DNA of 36,649 bases from a bacterium (GCA_030689285.1 JAUYJM010000007.1:1-36649), one strand, 5' to 3'. Counted from the stretch's first letter, positions 1 to 17,501 are shown. Numbers and translations are program-made. The notes: generated from the sequence alone by a model not told the origin.

Positions 1-140
1 TCTTGAAATAAAAGGAGCTAAGGTTTTGGCGTATTTTGTCCGTTTAAAGCGCCGAGACCTAAAAATCAAAACGAACTAGACCTTGTAGACGTTTCAATGG
101 ATTCTTTTTGCACGGCGGTTCGATTCCGCCCATCTCCACA
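1..140 (+). ncRNA. ssrA: 3' portion of a tmRNA (SsrA) including the tRNA-like T-arm and acceptor 3' strand; the 5' part is either left of the window or supplied by 186-229 if the gene is permuted
   Basis: T-arm GGCGG(114-118)/TTCGATT/CCGCC(126-130), then the 7-nt acceptor strand CATCTCC(131-137) and A138. There is no matching GGAGATG about 70 nt upstream, so this is not a tRNA. The TGTAGACGTTTC...GCAC segment before the T-arm resembles the equivalent segment of E. coli and B. subtilis tmRNA. Confidence 0.55.
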
Positions 141-229
141 TTTTCAAAAATGAGCTCGCTTCTTGGCGAGCCATTTTTGTTATGTGGAGATGGAGCAAGT
201 GAACTGCTTCACTTGCGTGCGGAATCGAA
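130..229 (+). repeat. tmRNA-end-associated structured module, copy 1
   Basis: 12-bp inverted repeat CCATCTCCACAT(130-141)/ATGTGGAGATGG(182-193) enclosing a hairpin. It is followed by a 9-bp stem GCAAGTGAA(195-203)/TTCACTTGC(208-216) and GTGCGGAATCGAA(217-229). The same architecture recurs at 3660-3795. Confidence 0.85.
146..180 (+). terminator. intrinsic-terminator-like hairpin directly after the tmRNA 3' end
   Basis: AAAAATG(A)GCTCGC-ttcttg-GCGAGCCATTTTTGT: the A-tract and T-tract flank a GC stem with one bulged A. Confidence 0.5.
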
Positions 230-334
230 GGACGGAAACATGTTTCGTCAGCAGACGAAACAGTTGAGTCGGGGTCGCGAAAAACTTTTGCGACGGCAAA
301 AGTTTATTCGTGACCGATACGCGAGTCCGCGAGC

Positions 335-348
335 TTCCGCCCATCTCC
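335..348 (+). repeat. 14-nt exact direct repeat of the tmRNA T-loop-to-3'-end segment (att-like)
   Basis: TTCCGCCCATCTCC at 335-348 is identical to 124-137. No T-stem 5' strand lies upstream of it. Confidence 0.8.
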
Positions 349-542
349 TCACACATAGAACAATATGGAAGACTTTGAATTACGAAACTCCATATCCGCG
401 TCTTTCTTTTCAATTTCGGCTACGGCTTTGTAAAAATTATTCAACAGATACTCTGAATATGCCTCATAATTTTTGCTTCGCCTCGCTCTAAATTGATAAG
501 AAATCCATCGGAAGCGAGTTTCGTAACTCAAAGTGGAAGAAT

Positions 543-570
543 AAAAATGCCCTGTTTTCAGGGTATTTTT
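543..570. terminator. bidirectional intrinsic terminator
   Basis: AAAA-ATGCCCTG-tttt-CAGGGTAT-TTTT. It lies 70 nt past the stop of the minus-strand GT gene and would also end any plus-strand transcript coming from 186 onward. Confidence 0.55.
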
Positions 571-639
571 CCGTTTTAATACACATCAACATTTTCCGAA
601 GTCACATCACTTCATGAAAGATTGACCTTCATGGCCCCA

Positions 640-1803
640 TTAGCCCTGTATCCGATTCTGACTATGCTCTGCCTTTATCTCCCGATACAGCTCAAGTAAA
701 TTATCCGCGATTGTGCCACTACGAAATTGCCCAGCCGTTTTGCGTGCTGCTCCAGCCATGGCAAGCCGCTTCTCAGGATTAGAAACGAGCTCTTCCACTT
801 TTTCCTGTGCCTCCTTATTTGAGAAAACCAAAAACCCGTTTTCGCCATTTTTTATAATCTCAGGAGCTACACCGACTGCATAGGATATTGGCACAAGGCC
901 TTGCGACATGCCCTCGACAAGACTGAGAGAGAATCCTTCATATCGGGATGAAATAAAAAGAATGCTCCCATAGCGACGCGACAAAACATCGGGGATAAGA
1001 TCTTTACGGATATTGACGTGTATATGGTGAGTCGGGAAAGCAACACGGAGCCACTCTTTTAACTTTTTATTAGTAGTCATACAAATTGTTGTCTTGGAAA
1101 TATCCGGAAAAGATCGGTAGAGTCCAATAAGACGGTCGAGTCCCTTGAGTTTGAGCGTAAAGACATCTCCACCGAGACGACCAAGAAAAACAATGTGTGG
1201 ATCAGAGGCAACGGGCGATTCTTTTCTTTCAAACCAGTAATTCTCAATGGCATTGTAAACAACCTTGATTCTTTCTGGCAGTACCCCCATGCCAATAAGT
1301 TCTTCTCTCACATATTCTGAAGTCGCTATGCATCTCGTCACGCGTGTTGCCACTAACTTTTCCATATCAGCTATATCTCGGAGAGGCTGAAATGTTTCAG
1401 GCTCAAGGCCTGAAATAATATTGAGATTGCGTAACTCACGCCAGATCGCTATCTCATCAGGCAAAAGTATTGATGTTTTTGGGGTGTTTTTGAGAAATCC
1501 AATAGTAGTTGAACCGAAGTGACTAACGAGAGGTGTTTTGAACGAAAGAAACGGTAACGGGGTGTATGTTGTTCCCTGAATAATGTGATAACGAAGTATG
1601 TCGTCTTTGTGTTCAAGTAAAGAATGAAAGAAAAGAATGTTCGCAAGCCCACGCATGTGTATCGGCACATCAGCAAGTTGCCAACGCGGATAGAAATTAC
1701 GAACGGTGGCACCTCGCTCTTTGAGCGCTGCCGCCATAATCTGATTTATATGATGCGCCCCAGTTGCGATGCGCCTTTCATTATGAATCATCGCTACTTT
1801 CAT
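640..1803 (-). CDS. glycosyltransferase, GT4 / group-1 family
   Basis: ORF 640..1926. The GT-B type C-terminal region reads ...FISSRYEGFSLSLVEGMSQGLVPI... . I place the start at the ATG at 1803 (MKVAMIHN...), a typical GT4 N-terminus. The upstream ATG at 1926 adds 41 basic residues and remains an alternative. Confidence 0.85.
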   Translation of the reverse strand: MKVAMIHNERRIATGAHHINQIMAAALKERGATVRNFYPRWQLADVPIHMRGLANILFFHSLLEHKDDILRYHIIQGTTYTPLPFLSFKTPLVSHFGSTTIGFLKNTPKTSILLPDEIAIWRELRNLNIISGLEPETFQPLRDIADMEKLVATRVTRCIATSEYVREELIGMGVLPERIKVVYNAIENYWFERKESPVASDPHIVFLGRLGGDVFTLKLKGLDRLIGLYRSFPDISKTTICMTTNKKLKEWLRVAFPTHHIHVNIRKDLIPDVLSRRYGSILFISSRYEGFSLSLVEGMSQGLVPISYAVGVAPEIIKNGENGFLVFSNKEAQEKVEELVSNPEKRLAMAGAARKTAGQFRSGTIADNLLELYREIKAEHSQNRIQG

Positions 1804-1958
1804 ACCATTTCCCGGTTTTGGCACATTTCCACTTTTCCTGCGTGATAAATGGCGCAATCCTCTCATAAAGGAATTTGTTGTTTTATACGCCCGACGTGTC
1901 AGACTGTGATTTGTTTTTGTATTCATAAAATAATTTATGCGTTCCTTACTGAAAGTTT

Positions 1959-1990
1959 TTTTCGGTATATGACATTCATTATACCGAAAA
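1959..1990. repeat. 11-bp perfect inverted repeat upstream of the GT gene (candidate operator or hairpin)
   Basis: TTTTCGGTATA(1959-1969)-N10-TATACCGAAAA(1980-1990). Confidence 0.6.
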
Positions 1991-2419
1991 TTATTTATTT
2001 CTCCATCTTTTATTTATTGTATTCTCTCCGGAGTGGACTCAACAAAAATTCGGCCAAAAAACACGCGAAAAGTATCCGCCACTCCATAAGCACTTTTTCA
2101 GGCCTATTTTTTTATTCCTTTTTATTAATGTCATTAACTTCGTTAACATACTGGAGAGTGTAGTGTAGAGAGGTGGTTCTATTGAGATTGATGGATTCCT
2201 TATCAAAGAGGTAATCTATCACCAGAGAGGACTCTAGTGGCCGAGAACCTTACCACGATTGAACGATCTTAAGAGAAGAGCACACATCTGGTTCCAAGAT
2301 ATAGGTTCTAACATCATTCATTAGTTTCCACTCGACTCGCTTGCTTTCTGAAAGCAAGCTCGCTCGTGGATTTTCCTGAGCTTGTCGAAGGATAAACCAC
2401 CAGCGAAAACAGCGTGCTC

Positions 2420-2448
2420 AAACACCTCGTCAGAGGTGTTTTTGTGTT
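2420..2448 (+). terminator. orphan plus-strand intrinsic terminator
   Basis: AAACACCTC-gtca-GAGGTGTTT followed by TTGTGTT. There is no plus-strand CDS upstream. Confidence 0.5.
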
Positions 2449-2496
2449 GCATTAACAGGTTGAATGTACCTACCTGATCCCTTTATCCTCAAGTAT

Positions 2497-2538
2497 AAAA
2501 AAGAGCCCCGACACCATCATCGCTGACGGGTGGGGCTC
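2497..2538 (-). terminator. intrinsic terminator of the XRE regulator gene
   Basis: On the minus strand: GAGCCCC...GGGGCTC followed by TTTTTT, starting 6 nt after the stop codon at 2544. Confidence 0.55.
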
Positions 2539-2543
2539 GTGAC

Positions 2544-3317
2544 TTATGTTGCAAGGATTGTGGAAAATTCAACTCCCACTTCCTTTAAACTGAAATATGC
2601 TTCGCACAGAGCAGTGAGTTGCTCAAAGTTCAGACTCTCAAAACCTTCCATTCTTGCGATTTTTTTCAGCAAAGGTAGAACATCCTGTTTCTTTAGCTTA
2701 TCAAGGATTTTTACAGCCCTTGGCTCGTTAGCGAGTTTGTCCATTTCGGCGGGGTCAATTCCCAACACTTGGCAAAGTGCTTGTCTTCTTTCGAGAGACA
2801 GCTCTCGCTTTACTCTTCCATTCTCAAGGTTCGAGAAAGATTGAGTAGTAAAATCCTCTTTGAGAAGCTTGTTCAGCTCCGCATTAGCCTTTCGTTGTGA
2901 CCAACCTTTTCCGATACGAGCAGTCCTCACCATCACCCCAATCCTCTGTATGTTTGAGCATTCTCCTTGAGTAGATGAGTTTCGGTGAGATTCTTCTTTT
3001 GTGGATAAGCTTTCGTAAATCCCTTTATCACCATCCAGCACATCTGCCAAAAGGTGACGAAGCTCAAGTGATAGTTCACGACTCAAACTCGCCGACTCCA
3101 ATTTTGTAATCCAAGTCCTATTAAACTTTTTCGGTTTCTTGGTGTAAGGATCTACGGGTTTATTTTGAGCACCTTGTAATTTTGAAGTTAGCTGTTCCTG
3201 CGTCCACCCGAGACGCACTCTATCTTGTTGGACTAGTTCGCCTAGGTGTTTCGCATTCATGTGTAAACTTTCTGTAAGAGGTTGTAGGTTTCTGCGACAA
3301 TATGGGACCAGACGCAT
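2544..3317 (-). CDS. XRE-family DNA-binding protein with two tandem HTH domains
   Basis: Two repeats of the pattern GW(T/S)Q...(L/N)LE...RELSLE.R..L...L, which is HTH_XRE-like, each with an inserted loop. The C-terminal ~70 aa are unassigned. An alternative start is the ATG at 3260 (MNAKHLGELV...). Confidence 0.8.
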   Translation of the reverse strand: MRLVPYCRRNLQPLTESLHMNAKHLGELVQQDRVRLGWTQEQLTSKLQGAQNKPVDPYTKKPKKFNRTWITKLESASLSRELSLELRHLLADVLDGDKGIYESLSTKEESHRNSSTQGECSNIQRIGVMVRTARIGKGWSQRKANAELNKLLKEDFTTQSFSNLENGRVKRELSLERRQALCQVLGIDPAEMDKLANEPRAVKILDKLKKQDVLPLLKKIARMEGFESLNFEQLTALCEAYFSLKEVGVEFSTILAT

Positions 3318-3659
3318 TGTTAAAACGACAAATTTTTATTATCGCAAAAACACGTCCGGCTCTGTAAAAAGGTCTAAACTTGAGCTACCATAACATACAA
3401 AATGTGTTCTGTCCATGTTTTTCCCGCTGAACACATGAGCTTAATTTCGACCTTAAAATACCTTCATTTAGAGCCATTTTTTAAAATCGCGCCGAAACGA
3501 AAAGGAACAGAGAATAATATTAATTCTAATACAAGAATTGTGATACCTAGAAAATAGATTTTCCTTACGATTTCACCATTATTTTCCCATTATTACAGGT
3601 ATTTAAGAATTAATACCACTAAAAAACAAAGGTTTTGATGGTTTTCGATGTTTTACGGT

Positions 3660-3795
3660 CCATCTCCACATGTACAAAAACCAGCCCGAATGGGCGGTTT
3701 TTGTTATGTGGAGATGGAGCAAGTGAACTGCCCGCCCGTACCGAATATGTCTGTGCGGTACGTTCGGGCGGGCTTCACTTGCGGGCGGAATTGAC
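3660..3795 (+). repeat. tmRNA-end-associated structured module, copy 2 (diverged, no T-arm)
   Basis: CCATCTCCACAT(3660-3671)/ATGTGGAGATGG(3706-3717) enclose AAAAACC(A)GCCC-gaat-GGGCGGTTTTT. GCAAGTGAA(3719-3727)/TTCACTTGC(3774-3782) now carries a 42-nt GC-rich hairpin insertion (3731-3772). GGGCGGAATTGAC(3783-3795) follows. Confidence 0.85.
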
Positions 3796-3829
3796 AAACC
3801 CCCCGCATAGGTTTAATTTAGAGGACAGT

Positions 3830-4024
3830 ATGAACACCCTAACGGACAGACAAATTGTGGAGCTTCGCAGAATACACGAAGCCGACCAGGCCGAAGCGGC
3901 ATACGAGCAAAGACGAAGAGAGTTTTTCAGAGCAAAAATGCGAAGCGACAAGTTGCAAACATTTTTGATGCTGGCCTTCATCTTGTTTTTGTTTGCGCTG
4001 TTGTTTGCAAAGATAAACGGTTGA
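3830..4024 (+). CDS. small hypothetical protein with a C-terminal transmembrane helix (64 aa)
   Basis: ATG at 3830 is preceded by AGAGGA (3819-3824). The N-terminal part is charged and helical, and the tail is hydrophobic (LMLAFILFLFALLFA). Confidence 0.6.
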   Translation: MNTLTDRQIVELRRIHEADQAEAAYEQRRREFFRAKMRSDKLQTFLMLAFILFLFALLFAKING

Positions 4025-4051
4025 AAGAGAGCAGAAAGGAGTCAAGACAAA

Positions 4052-4240
4052 ATGAGCAAACCGATTCGCGCAAAATGTCCTCATTGCGGAACTTTGACGC
4101 CTTACGCCGGCTACGGAGCGCACGTGGCGGTATGCGTCAGAATGCAGAGTGCAAAAACGCAACTCCCTCAACCATTCGCCTTCATCCGAAAAAAGGACGA
4201 AAAAGGTTTGAAGAAATCCACAGAAAGCCATTGTGCGTAA
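4052..4240 (+). CDS. small hypothetical protein with a CxxC...HxxxC zinc-ribbon-like motif (62 aa)
   Basis: AAGGAG lies 10 nt upstream of the ATG. The motif is CPHCGTLTPYAGYGAHVAVC. Confidence 0.5.
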   Translation: MSKPIRAKCPHCGTLTPYAGYGAHVAVCVRMQSAKTQLPQPFAFIRKKDEKGLKKSTESHCA

Positions 4241-4268
4241 TATCTTGTGGCGTTAAACTACCATAAGT

Positions 4269-4472
4269 ATGGACACTCACAAAATCCCAGTCCCTCTCGC
4301 TGTGTTTCTGCAAATACAGAAGCGTGAGATGGAGAGTCCGTTCAACAGGTGGGTGACCGGCGAAGAAGTCCACCGCTACCCCACAAACAATGAACTGGTA
4401 ACGCATTACATTGGCTCTGGTCGCGCGGCAGAAATAGCGCGCGAACTGGAGCCCAGGATGGCAAGAATCTAA
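4269..4472 (+). CDS. hypothetical protein (67 aa)
   Basis: Same strand and tightly spaced after the previous ORF. I see no recognisable domain and no clear SD. Confidence 0.4.
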   Translation: MDTHKIPVPLAVFLQIQKREMESPFNRWVTGEEVHRYPTNNELVTHYIGSGRAAEIARELEPRMARI

Positions 4473-4507
4473 TTTGCGCGGGCCTCTCGGCACCGCGAAG
4501 AAACAAG

Positions 4508-4545
4508 CCCCATTTTGAAGCGATTCAAAATGGGGTCTTTTTGTT
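4508..4545 (+). terminator. strong intrinsic terminator
   Basis: CCCCATTTTG(4508-4517)-aagcgatt-CAAAATGGGG(4526-4535) followed by TCTTTTTGTTTG. Confidence 0.75.
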
Positions 4546-4573
4546 TGCTTATATCGCCTATTTATGCTATATT
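4545..4573 (+). promoter_or_regulatory. sigma70-like promoter
   Basis: TTGCTT(4545-4550)-N17-TATATT(4568-4573), about 80 nt upstream of the ATG at 4653. Confidence 0.4.
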
Positions 4574-4652
4574 AAAAATAGATTTCTTTAGGGTCTCCAA
4601 CCAAATATCCATTTTGGAAATGGACCTCTTTACTCAAAAAGAAAGGAACAGT

Positions 4653-5066
4653 ATGGACACAGAAACATTGACAGTAGCAGTTAAATACTTGCGATACGCG
4701 GCAAGCACAGTGAAAGAGTGGAATTTGAGACCGGAAGAAGCCGGTCAATTTATAAACGACTACCAGTTGGCGCGGCGGAAGTCTCCCCTGAAAGAAGACG
4801 ACGCGGCCGACATAGTGCGGGCGATCTGGTCTCCTCAATTTCATATTGCGTCAGAACTGTGGGGCTTGAGCGCAGACGCTCAGGAAACAATACTCGCCTT
4901 GTGGTCTTGTTTTTTGGCGGAATCGGATCGCCTCTGGAAAAATGGCCAAGAGGAAGTGGGTGAGATTATGGACCGCAACCTCGCCCAAAACCTCGGGGTG
5001 AAGTTTGAAGACTGGAACAACGCCCGTCTGCAAGCAAGAACCTTTTCGGAATTAGTGGCGGCATAA
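4653..5066 (+). CDS. hypothetical protein (137 aa)
   Basis: ORF 4515..5066. The 5' part of that ORF spans a terminator and a promoter, so I use the in-frame ATG at 4653, preceded by GAAAGGAA. No recognisable domain. Confidence 0.6.
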   Translation: MDTETLTVAVKYLRYAASTVKEWNLRPEEAGQFINDYQLARRKSPLKEDDAADIVRAIWSPQFHIASELWGLSADAQETILALWSCFLAESDRLWKNGQEEVGEIMDRNLAQNLGVKFEDWNNARLQARTFSELVAA

Positions 5067-5976: not shown

Positions 5977-6090
5977 AAACTCGAATGGTCCCGAACTAGG
6001 CGCGAGTACGCGCCTCCCGAATCAATCATGAATCTGATATTAGGGAAAATTAGGGATAAAATTCGGGATTGATTAGAGAACAATAATTAT
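5977..6090 (+). repeat. intergenic repeat element, family A, copy 1 (sense to operon)
   Basis: Contains GTCCCGAAC, the hairpin GGCGCG-AGTA-CGCGCC (5999-6014), TCCCGAATCAATCATGAATCTGA and ATTAGGGA/ATTCGGGA motifs. It is nearly identical to the reverse complement of 17382-17501. Confidence 0.85.
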
Positions 6091-8691: not shown

Positions 8692-9294
8692 TCATTCCAA
8701 GATTCCGTCAATATTTACATCATAAAGTATGGATTCCTGAACCAAGCGGTAATTTATGATTTCTTCCGGTTTAAACCAGTGAGCGATTTCGTCTTCCGCT
8801 TCTTTTACCGACCCTGAAGCGTGAATCAAATTTCTGACGGCGCGGCTGTCTGAATCGGCCATAGCGTAAGAATCCAATACAAAATCCCCCCTAATCGTAC
8901 CCACATCGGAAGAACGGGGTTCCGTGCCTCCCGTCATCTTTCTTATAAGTTCCACCGCGTGAGCTCCTTGCCATACCATAGCGACCACAGGTCCGCTTGT
9001 CATATACTTTTTAAGACTTTCAATGACTCTGTCGCCGACCTCAATCGGGTCCAAAGATGGCGGTTTTTGGCCTTTTTTCTGATAGCTTTCTATGGCTTTC
9101 TCGCCCACCAGACGTTTCCAATTCGGGTCTATAGAATAATGCGCTTCTATGTGCTCGGGTGTCGGCACAAGCATTTTTATGGCTACAAGTTTTAACCCAA
9201 GTCTCTCGTAACGCTTGACAATCTCTCCCGTAAGAGTTCGTTGGATGCCGTCCGGCTTTATTACAACCAGAGTTTTTTCGTGTCTAAAATGCAT
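8692..9294 (-). CDS. ndk: nucleoside-diphosphate kinase (long form with internal insertion)
   Basis: TLVVIKPDGIQRTLTGEIVKRYE...GLKLVAIKML...SGPVVAMVWQG...GTIRGDF...NLIHASGS are the NDK motifs. An insertion of about 40 aa follows HIEAHY. Confidence 0.9.
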   Translation of the reverse strand: MHFRHEKTLVVIKPDGIQRTLTGEIVKRYERLGLKLVAIKMLVPTPEHIEAHYSIDPNWKRLVGEKAIESYQKKGQKPPSLDPIEVGDRVIESLKKYMTSGPVVAMVWQGAHAVELIRKMTGGTEPRSSDVGTIRGDFVLDSYAMADSDSRAVRNLIHASGSVKEAEDEIAHWFKPEEIINYRLVQESILYDVNIDGILE

Positions 9295-9369
9295 GCGGTA
9301 AGTATAAAGTCAAAGGTAAAAAGTGTAAAGCGAAAAAATCAGTGTCTGCCCGTGTAGAGACGGAAACTT

Positions 9370-10182
9370 TTAGACGCCTAAAAATGGCGTTAAAATTTCC
9401 GGTCCCTTGCTTGTAATAGCTATCGTTTGTTCAAAATGGGCCGCGATAGCACCGTCTTTCGTTCTATAAGTGAAACCGTCCTCGTCCAAACAGACGTCTC
9501 CCTTCCCCAAAGTAAACATCGGTTCTATTGCCAATACCATACCAGGTAAGAGCCTCTCCCCTTTTCCAGATTGCCCGTAATTTGGCACAAACGGCTCTTC
9601 GTGGACTTTGTACCCCACGCCGTGACCGGCCAGGTCTCTGACGATTCCGAATCCAAACGGTTTTACGAAATTTTCTATTGCCGCCCCTATATCTCCAACC
9701 GTATTACCCGGCCTTGCCTCTTTTATTCCTTGAGCGAGCGCATCTCTCGTAACTTTAATCAACTCAATCTTTTTATCCTCGTCTGGCTGTCTTTTTTTGT
9801 TTGTTATTTCGCGGTCATAGGTCACTAAAACCGTCACCGCCATATCGGTAATCATTCCCCTATGACAGAGACCGCAGTCCAGAGACACAACGTCCCCTTC
9901 CGCTAGGACAATCTCCTTTTCGTTGGGAATTCCATGCACTACGGCATCATTTACAGACACGCAAACGCTTGCCGGAAAAGCCCGCGCGGCGCCATTCGGT
10001 TTATAGTTTAAAAAAGCTCCTTCATCGCCCAAATTTTTTATTTTTTCCTCCGCTATGCGGTTTAGACTGTTCGCCGAGACTTTGGAAACGGCGGCAACCG
10101 AAAGGTCTCGTAAGAGTTCGGCCAGTCGCGATCCTCCTTCCCGCAAGATATCTATTTCTTTTTCCGTTTTCAAGCGTATCAT
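9370..10182 (-). CDS. map: type I methionine aminopeptidase
   Basis: IRLKTEKEIDILREGG...VVHGIP...DCG...GHGVG...HEEP...LAIEP... are the metal-ligand motifs. It follows adk with an ATGA overlap. Confidence 0.9.
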   Translation of the reverse strand: MIRLKTEKEIDILREGGSRLAELLRDLSVAAVSKVSANSLNRIAEEKIKNLGDEGAFLNYKPNGAARAFPASVCVSVNDAVVHGIPNEKEIVLAEGDVVSLDCGLCHRGMITDMAVTVLVTYDREITNKKRQPDEDKKIELIKVTRDALAQGIKEARPGNTVGDIGAAIENFVKPFGFGIVRDLAGHGVGYKVHEEPFVPNYGQSGKGERLLPGMVLAIEPMFTLGKGDVCLDEDGFTYRTKDGAIAAHFEQTIAITSKGPEILTPFLGV

Positions 10183-13579: not shown

Positions 13580-13679
13580 CAAATTAGTTCTTCAAGTTCA
13601 TAAAGTTTAAAGTTTATAAAGTATTTGTCTCTTTGGCCTTACCTGATGAACTTTACAAACTTGACAGACTTTTAACTCT
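13580..13679 (-). repeat. intergenic palindromic repeat, family B, copy 1
   Basis: AAGTT(Y)AT-type octamer arms flank the conserved core TAAAGTATTTGTCTCTTTGGCCTTACCTGATGAACTTTA. It fills the whole rplF-rplR spacer. Confidence 0.85.
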
Positions 13680-14213: not shown

Positions 14214-14314
14214 AAATAAGTTTATAAAGTTATAAAGTTTAAAAGTTTATAAAGTATTCGGCTCTTTGGTTTTGCTTGATGAACTTTATGAACTTGATAA
14301 ACTTTCTAATCTCT
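14214..14314 (-). repeat. intergenic palindromic repeat, family B, copy 2
   Basis: Core TAAAGTATTCGGCTCTTTGGTTTTGCTTGATGAACTTTA. The left arm AAGTTTATAAAGTTATAAAGTT is complementary to the right arm AACTTTATGAACTTGATAAACTT. Confidence 0.85.
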
Positions 14315-16320: not shown

Positions 16321-16418
16321 AAGATTAGTTCGTCAAGTTTATCAAGTTGAAAGTTCTTAAAGTATTCCGACTTTGCCTTACTTGATGAACTTTATGGACT
16401 TTATGAACTTTTAACTTT
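16321..16418 (-). repeat. intergenic palindromic repeat, family B, copy 3 (right arm runs into the rpsQ 3' end)
   Basis: Core TAAAGTATTCCGACTTTGCCTTACTTGATGAACTTTA. The arm ...ACTTTATGGACTTTATGAACTTTTAACTT covers the last codons and the stop of rpsQ. Confidence 0.8.
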
Positions 16419-17381: not shown

Positions 17382-17501
17382 ATGTAAATTTATTCTCTAA
17401 TCAATCCCTAATTTTAGTCCCGAATTTCCCTAATTCAGATTCGTGATTGATTCGGGAGGCGCGTACTCGCGCCTAAATTCGGGACTATTTGGGATGATTG
17501 G
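17382..17501 (-). repeat. intergenic repeat element, family A, copy 2 (sense to operon)
   Basis: Its reverse complement matches 5988-6085 over a ~55-nt near-identical core that includes the GGCGCG-AGTA-CGCGCC hairpin (17458-17473). It fills the rpsC-rplP spacer. Confidence 0.85.

Follow-up and report, generated by a model that had tools for sequence, protein, structure and literature searches.

Directly after the tmRNA gene with which this bacterial contig begins lies a module (130–229) that is repeated 3.5 kb further on, at 3660–3791. The locus raises the question of what the second copy is, a structured RNA in its own right or a trace of recombination at the tmRNA end. The window analyzed here is the entire contig of 36,649 nt, whose start falls inside a one-piece tmRNA gene. 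The remaining 3′ part of this gene occupies positions 1–141 on the plus strand (Rfam RF00023, 61.9 bits, E = 5e-22, model positions 230–374), with the T-arm at 114–130, the 3′ acceptor strand at 131–137 and the discriminator A at 138; CCA is not encoded. A GT1 glycosyltransferase, an XRE regulator and three small ORFs lie between the tmRNA gene and infC (5174). The rest of the contig is ordinary chromosome, with rplT (6091), an RNase J-like gene, ndk, map, adk, secY, a ribosomal protein operon, argS and a sugar-modification cluster. Pfam searches detected no recombinase or integrase domain on any ORF of the 36.6-kb contig. A prophage with copy 2 as its attL was considered and rejected, as the contig is chromosomal and carries neither phage nor integrase genes.

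Other repeats occur on the same contig. An inverted repeat of about 86 nt (5997–6083 and 17390–17475; 41 nt at 98% and 45 nt at 84% complementarity) has each of its copies just 5′ of the start of a ribosomal protein gene, rplT (6091, plus strand) and rplP/L16 (16965–17381, minus strand), and may be a leader or promoter element common to both. AT-rich direct repeats of about 45–99 nt (13581–13679, 14214–14312 and 16324–16416), built from AAGTTTATAAAGTT / TGATGAACTTTATGAAC motifs, are located in intergenic gaps of the ribosomal protein operon, around L18, L6 and S8 and upstream of 16401.

[quoted passage not shown] In copy 1, the left arm consists of TTCGATTCCGC and CCATCTCCACAT (119–141, plus strand), which cover the final 23 nt of the gene together with the trailer. 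The apex hairpin, A5-TGAGCTCGC/GCGAGCCA-T5 (146–178), is a bidirectional intrinsic terminator, detected by the terminator scan on both strands (154–171). On the right, A′ (ATGTGGAGATGG, 182–193) and T′ (GCGGAATCGAA, 219–229) join in the MFE fold of copy 1 into a strand exactly complementary to the final 23 nt of the gene, a relation that the earlier note had not recognized. Those 23 nt comprise the T-loop TTCGATT, the T-stem strand CCGC(C), the acceptor strand CATCTCC and ACAT. H1 (GCAAGTGAA/TTCACTTGC, 9 bp, 195–203/208–216) sits between these two pieces. The arms are complementary over 12 + 11 nt and almost perfectly Watson–Crick, with few wobble pairs, making them inverted target-like arms able to anneal into a mimic of the target.

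The second copy shares much of this sequence. The 12-nt tmRNA end recurs at 3660–3671 on the plus strand (12/12 identical to 130–141), and A′ is identical at 3706–3717, confirming the earlier note on this DNA, which had described a second module copy with an identical 12-nt inverted repeat. A repeat search of the window showed a 34-nt block of 100% identity (174–207 = 3698–3731), and CCATCTCC occurs eight times against 0.64 expected. Folding against shuffled sequence gave z = -10.3 and -8.7 for the two copies, far better than the shuffles. The 9-bp stem of H1 is kept in copy 2 (3719–3727/3774–3782) and its loop is replaced by a 42-nt GC-rich hairpin (3731–3772), again as the note had it. No second copy of this insert was found elsewhere in the window when it was searched as a dispersed repeat. 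T′ corresponds to GCGGAATTGAC at 3785–3795, with GCGGAAT (3785–3791) as the part that copy 2 retains, so the right arm of copy 2, composed of A′, H1 with its loop insert and T′, spans 3706–3795 on the plus strand. Outside the apex and the H1 insert the copies are about 97% identical; such closeness suggests that duplication or exchange took place recently inside the lineage, or that gene conversion was at work, and that the DNA was not imported from a distant donor.

The differences lie in the left arm and in the hairpins. The left arm of copy 2 is without the T-loop and T-stem part: RF00023 matches only 1–141, ARAGORN finds no tmRNA in copy 2, and the T-arm is absent. Both the missing T-arm and the position of copy 2 upstream of the first small ORF (ATG at 3830) had been recognized correctly before. 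At the apex, copy 2 carries A5-CCAGCCCG/GGGCGG-T5 (3676–3702), which by sequence and fold is a terminator-like hairpin with a bulged stem (GCCC/GGGC plus CC/GG, then T5); the simple terminator scan made no call here because the stem is bulged. The apex had been thought to show compensatory base changes. The A5/T5 frame is indeed kept, but the hairpins within it are unrelated in sequence, which is wholesale replacement and not point-wise compensation.

To establish what the inverted arm represents, we compared it with both ends of tmRNA genes. A′ is not a copy of a tmRNA 5′ end: real 5′ ends in related loci read GGGGATG and form the G3:U70 pair, whereas A′ reads GGAGATGG and would give A3:U70. 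A permuted tmRNA (RF04321) was likewise rejected, as the copy 1 region, at 25.8 bits, falls short of that model's gathering score of 47. In related loci, complete one-piece tmRNAs end at the left arm. The arm instead follows the tmRNA 3′ end of its own locus. Agreement between T′ and the local T-arm is complete (11 of 11 positions) in most of 53 modules, which cover 29 distinct T-arm sequences among the matches listed. Even unusual T-arms are tracked, TTCGCTA by TAGCGAA in L015 and L028 and CTCATTA by TAATGAG in L088. T′ is closer to the left, tmRNA-side copy than to the right copy in 42 of 52 units (among the matches listed).

The module proved to be part of a larger and widespread element. 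A scan of one genome per species for CCATCTCCAC and GTGGAGATGG separated by a gap of 20–50 nt returned at least 120 loci. About 60 of the matches listed belong to Patescibacteria (Saccharibacteria, Paceibacteria, and Kaiser-, Nomura-, Vogel-, Taylor- and Campbellbacteria), and there the left arm is the end of a complete standard tmRNA, after which the same module architecture follows. From A′ to a second direct copy of the tmRNA end, a stretch of about 165 nt adopts the same fold in every locus. We refer to this stretch as the X unit; its 3′ end is the second direct copy and its 5′ part belongs to the palindromic module. In the window, a partial direct copy of the tmRNA end, the third, TTCCGCCCATCTCC (335–348 = 124–137, 14/14), which the earlier note had not mentioned, closes a complete unit at 184–351. 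The order in this unit is A′ (182–193), H1 (195–216), T′ (219–229), P2/H2 (about 231–266), P3/H3 (about 270–334) and TTCCGCCCATCTCC (335–348). Within P2, the internal loop (GGA/GA) is conserved and the hairpin, H2, is variable. P3 is marked by GGTCGAGA...ACTTAGT, by a terminal loop resembling GAGCGNAGCGAA, and then by ...ACTTAGTGATTCGTGACC.

For the covariation test, 17 aligned sequences were compared with a structure that had been mapped from a single one of them. Standard pairs are formed in 88.1% of cells, compared with 34–45% when the partners are slid, and 42 of 61 pairs are changed on both sides, compared with 17–24. The covariation score is 0.55 against about 0.10 in controls, and none of 500 shuffles reached the pairing and covariation values of the structure. 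G.U cells outnumber A.C cells by 55 to 32, which leans towards the transcribed (tmRNA) strand, on which the structure itself was derived. The covariation is genuine; its basis is the set of more than 50 homologues found in other genomes, and not the pair of copies in the window. The expansion of the H1 loop site seen in copy 2 also recurs elsewhere, in L037.

To survey the family, we built a covariance model of the X unit, R1. The model recognizes the copy 1 unit (184–351, plus strand) over its full length with 89.4 bits (E = 4.6e-22), this unit being outside the training set. It finds about 85 units in total, answering the call for a search for further copies. About 70 full-length units occur in about 58 of the palindrome-selected loci (among the matches listed) and lie just 3′ of a tmRNA gene on the same strand; the sole exception to this rule of position and strand is a degenerate relic in L042. 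A second sample, selected by the tmRNA 3′ 21-mer only and so not conditioned on the palindrome, has an X unit in about 14 of about 66 standard tmRNA loci, the others carrying different insertions or none.

Searches beyond these genomes were negative. No X unit was present on 70 + 3 viral contigs, and single-strand replicon genes, circles and phage copies were not found either. Most of the 70 viral contigs with the tmRNA 3′ 21-mer carry permuted tmRNA genes. On these IMG/VR contigs (L247–L316, classed as viral), the 21-mer TTCGATTCCGCCCATCTCCAC is common to many circularly permuted (two-piece) tmRNA genes, laid out as T-arm, CCA, stem and then GGGGATGACCAGGTTTCGAC. A 21-mer spanning A′ and H1 had no match in the metagenome and viral collections. 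Exact-sequence protein look-ups for the glycosyltransferase, with either of two starts, and for L20 returned no record, and no conspecific genome came to light. Rfam 15 holds no family matching 142–351 at E up to 10; its matches in the region are the tmRNA itself and the sub-threshold permuted-tmRNA model, which falls on the T-arm, A, loop and A′ arrangement. The searchable literature yielded no description of a tmRNA-downstream element in Patescibacteria. The X unit is a real, covarying structured family, and apparently an undescribed one.

Against this family, copy 2 is incomplete. R1 scores it at 10.2 bits (E = 0.22), aligning only the 5′ strand of P1, H1 and T′; P2, P3 and the closing 3′ strand are missing. 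It is on the tmRNA strand at a distance of 3.5 kb, and so is not directly adjacent to the gene as X units are. Its content together with the 10-bit score therefore identifies it as a truncated family member. This bears on two claims of the earlier note. That the two copies are homologous structured elements holds at the level of homology and of family covariation; it does not extend to copy 2 itself as a functional RNA. The proposal of a functional structured RNA or leader finds no support, given the missing P2, P3 and closing strand, a score of 10 bits against 89, the absence of copy 2 from the related locus L124 and a downstream ORF that is an orphan. At its present position, copy 2 can at most be a terminator or insulator ahead of the small-ORF operon.

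The segment between the two modules (352–3659, characterized by Pfam on its ORFs) holds a 60-aa ORF (349–531, minus strand), the GT1 glycosyltransferase (640–1803/1926, minus strand, Pfam), the XRE regulator (2544–3260/3317, minus strand, Pfam) within a block that includes its terminator and promoter (2495–3432), and an AT-rich spacer (3433–3659) between that block and copy 2. Across all ORFs of 349–3317, Pfam returned only GT1 and XRE, with no integrase inside the bounded segment, and base composition showed no contrast between 352–3659 and the flanks. Downstream of copy 2 lie the three small ORFs of 64, 62 and 67 aa (3830–4472, plus strand), with a bidirectional terminator on their 3′ side (4507–4536). 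The first of them (ATG at 3830) is an orphan with no homologue among 5.8 billion proteins. A possible tmRNA-end remnant near 4593 (GGTCTCCAACCA) was rejected as an att remnant and judged to be a promoter/operator palindrome. The surrounding stretch (4547–4626) has a good sigma-70-like promoter (TTGCTT, 17 nt, TATATT) followed by the palindrome TCCATTTTGGAAATGGA, operator-like in appearance, and precedes a 137-aa orphan ORF (4653–5066).

Related loci provide additional insight into this layout. Both in the window and in L178, modules bracket small gene cargos without an integrase. L178 has a two-gene cargo flanked by two near-identical module copies of about 140 nt, and its first unit is broken exactly at the expected start of the right-hand direct repeat. 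Two intact palindromes kilobases apart were seen only in the window, among the loci listed. The one close relative found, L124, encodes an XRE protein 85% identical to that of the window and shares only the XRE block (window 2495–3432, 87.6% identity over 942 nt), the flanks being unrelated. The XRE gene, its terminator and about 115 nt upstream thus appear as a discrete 940-nt block (window 2495–3432, L124 1761–2701), in both genomes inside a variable region downstream of the tmRNA gene. In L124, the tmRNA is followed by a different island of 2.26 kb (a DUF3800 gene and two orphan ORFs), which is bounded by the direct repeat ATTCGCCCATCTCCACAA. No integrase or recombinase was found in this island, and L124 lacks both an X unit and a counterpart of copy 2.

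The presence of inserted genes between the two copies, which the earlier note had not remarked on, suggests that recombination took place at the tmRNA end. The window also has the arrangement typical of a displaced repeat, namely a direct repeat identical to the intact tmRNA 3′ end, downstream of it and in the same orientation. We consider, with a probability of roughly 0.55, that copy 2 is a displaced, truncated tmRNA-end module left by an insertion at the tmRNA end, and it most likely forms the distal boundary of an inserted segment of about 3.5 kb. In other genomes, serial accumulation of X units, and of DNA bearing them, is seen at the tmRNA 3′ end, and serial insertion is also the most economical account here. 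According to this model, DNA with a fresh X unit, the glycosyltransferase gene and the XRE block would have entered by recombination within the 12-nt CCATCTCCACAT, rebuilding the tmRNA end and bringing a new terminator. The older module would have been displaced 3.5 kb downstream, and may then have lost its T-arm flank and everything past T′ and gained the 42-nt insert in the H1 loop. The event was probably carried out by a host recombinase acting in trans, or else by homologous (Campbell-type) exchange between module copies; the latter, running through the module, would also yield the pattern seen in L178. Neither the window nor the L124 island contains an integrase or recombinase, and none recurs downstream of arrays, so that the mechanism of insertion is inferred, as is its direction. 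Neither an empty site nor an excised circle was observed among the genomes found, which include no conspecific one.

To further explore how X units behave, we examined loci with more than one. Tandem arrays comprise at least three units in L073, three in L024, four identical ones in L224 and two in several other loci. The L224 array (8772–9562) consists of four identical 212-nt units directly after the tmRNA, with degenerate A′, and may stem from an amplification that is very recent or from the assembly. Units of one array usually resemble each other less than they resemble units of other genomes; one L073 unit is 89% identical to an L003 unit and only 63% identical to its own array mates. Subtype order within arrays varies between genomes, and unit similarity correlates weakly with tmRNA similarity (Spearman 0.17). 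A′ is degenerate while T′, P2, P3 and the direct repeat stay in L224, L146, L150 and L172. R1 scores do not drop along the arrays, nor as the distance to the tmRNA grows. In general, then, distal units are not in decay, and the idea that they decay with age gains no support from the model scores. Conservation at all array positions fits selection on every unit, as expected of an RNA function, as well as recent insertion.

Downstream of the arrays, we found no recurrent recombinase among 166 ORFs clustered by all-against-all BLAST and read by eye, without a Pfam scan. The genes that do recur are infC and rplT (the synteny of the window), truB, FtsH and toxin-antitoxin-like pairs. X units usually precede a terminator, a strong terminator also stands 5′ of each unit, and no consistent promoter for the units was found. 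At 352–375 and in L004, L013, L030 and L073, the last direct tmRNA-end copy is followed by a conserved motif (A)CATGGAAATATATGGAAG with ATGGAA/ATAGAA repeats. These five loci come from different lineages, and the motif may bind a protein or simply belong to the native flank. Many metagenome loci that share this tmRNA 3′ end carry another element 3′ of the tmRNA, in which inverted repeats TGCTTCGC...GCGAAGCA surround a small ORF, GIY-YIG-like by eye. It occurs in L134 (545–1000), L183, L202, L225, L238, L239, L242, L235 and L217, and in L134 lies between the tmRNA and a degenerate X unit.

Other explanations of these data have to be weighed against displacement by insertion. X units could be structured small RNA genes arising from tmRNA read-through or processing, with a 5′ part complementary to the tmRNA 3′ end and a 3′ end identical with it; copy 2 would then be a divergent second copy that still functions, serving the small-ORF operon as its leader or as an sRNA. 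The strong covariation in H1, P2 and P3, the conserved internal and terminal loops (GGA/GA and GAGCGNAGCGAA) and the excess of G.U over A.C cells are what such a view expects, as are the preservation of structure at every array position and the variable hairpin lengths and loop expansions (L037, L063) typical of RNAs. The T-arm, A, loop and A′ arrangement also resembles, weakly, the permuted-tmRNA model RF04321 (25.8 bits). The units, moreover, always lie on the strand of the tmRNA, usually ahead of a terminator. Yet a strong terminator also precedes each of them, and no promoter is consistently present. Together with the degeneration of A′ in units that persist (L224, L146, L172), the patchy occurrence at about 14 of about 66 standard tmRNA loci with the same 3′ end, and a copy 2 that is stripped of P2, P3 and the closing strand and absent from L124, this leads us to regard the RNA explanation as unlikely. 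By analogy, the palindrome could instead be a recombination site in folded single-strand DNA, its arms annealing into a tmRNA-end mimic that permits integrase-less insertion via a host tyrosine recombinase; P2/P3 could then be a single-strand origin-like structure and copy 2 the left end of an element carrying the small ORFs. Folded DNA would explain both the co-varying inverted arm and the absence of integrases. Next to the direct copy there is indeed an inverted copy of the target, which follows it through 29 T-arm variants. Integrases are missing in cis, the pairing of the arms is almost perfect Watson–Crick, and the inverted-arm homology of copy 2 also stops at the mid-T-loop position. The target, however, is not dif, the unit of 165–200 nt has no coding capacity, and neither single-strand replicon genes, circles or phage copies nor any X unit on the 70 + 3 viral contigs came to light. 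The comparison with CTX phage and single-strand origins is one of analogy, and we consider this explanation quite unlikely.

A simpler view would make copy 2 a plain local duplication of the tmRNA flank, produced by unequal crossing-over or slippage, decaying, functionless and unlinked to any gene insertion. The near-identity of the copies outside the apexes and the existence of tandem identical units (L015, L084, L224) agree with it. It accounts poorly, however, for copies that stand 3.5 kb apart with unrelated mosaic cargo between them, for differences that take the form of replaced or inserted hairpin apexes rather than scattered substitutions, and for the same cargo-bracketing layout in L178, and we consider it very unlikely.

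Displacement by insertion has precedents at tmRNA genes. Williams, in "Traffic at the tmRNA gene", reportedly described tandem islands at the tmRNA gene and displaced direct repeats of its 3′ end. As in tandem ssrA islands, the direct repeats of the tmRNA 3′ end described here begin in the T-loop, and serial insertion would line up repeats and islands 3′ of an intact tmRNA whose end is restored by the incoming DNA. Unlike in ssrA islands, the repeat lies inside a long palindrome bearing the complement of the tmRNA end, and most of the "islands" are structured, gene-less units of 165–210 nt with which no integrase family is associated. Islands without an integrase do occur in ssrA arrays: in Dehalococcoides, where the 20-bp repeats of tandem ssrA islands start in the T-loop, some islands have none (McMurdie et al. 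2011, PMC3146451). Islander/TIGER islands served as the comparison source for tmRNA-integrated islands (PMC4383910).

Structural parallels can be drawn with other systems as well. The module apex resembles a Rho-independent bidirectional terminator, a GC hairpin between A- and T-tracts, but unlike in a plain terminator the pairing runs 23 nt past the tracts into the tmRNA gene and is broken by a conserved side hairpin. With permuted tmRNA (RF04321), the module shares the order T-arm, 3′ acceptor strand, hairpin and back-pairing strand, giving an acceptor-like stem, and the same 21-nt tmRNA end is found in many permuted genes; it differs in the complete standard tmRNA upstream, in the A3 of A′ that precludes G3:U70, and in having no coding piece after it. 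In CTX phage, a folded single-strand attP mimics dif and exploits the host Xer recombinases, and integron attC hairpins are comparable. Like these sites, X units carry inverted target-like copies that can anneal into a duplex mimicking the chromosomal target, have no integrase of their own, keep their structure through base changes and form arrays of inserted units. Their target, however, is the tmRNA gene end and not dif or attI, and their sequence is conserved besides their structure. No link to a single-strand replicon, IntI or Xer was seen, and the comparison may serve as a lead.

Displaced tmRNA-end repeats are already familiar as a mark of island traffic; a palindromic, integrase-less, structured unit appears to be a new form of it. 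What sets it apart is the combination of an exact inverted copy of the tmRNA end that tracks each genome's own T-arm, a strongly covarying structure of about 165 nt found neither in Rfam 15 nor in the searchable literature, and the lack of an integrase. A bolder reading, to which we give rather less than even odds, is that the X unit may be an undescribed tmRNA-linked element of Patescibacteria, either a miniature integrase-less integrative element or a new structured RNA, with copy 2 as a relic. Under either reading, R1 can be used to annotate such loci and to delimit islands in Patescibacteria. If the unit is an RNA, its 5′ part would be antisense to the tmRNA 3′ end and its 3′ end would mimic the tmRNA, making it a new partner of the ribosome-rescue RNA. 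If it is an integrative element, the palindrome would fold into a tmRNA-end mimic that captures a host recombinase, and the tmRNA flank would act as a cassette platform for small cargo genes. Should the units be mobile, they would show ultra-small, recombinase-poor bacteria shuffling small gene cassettes at one hotspot.
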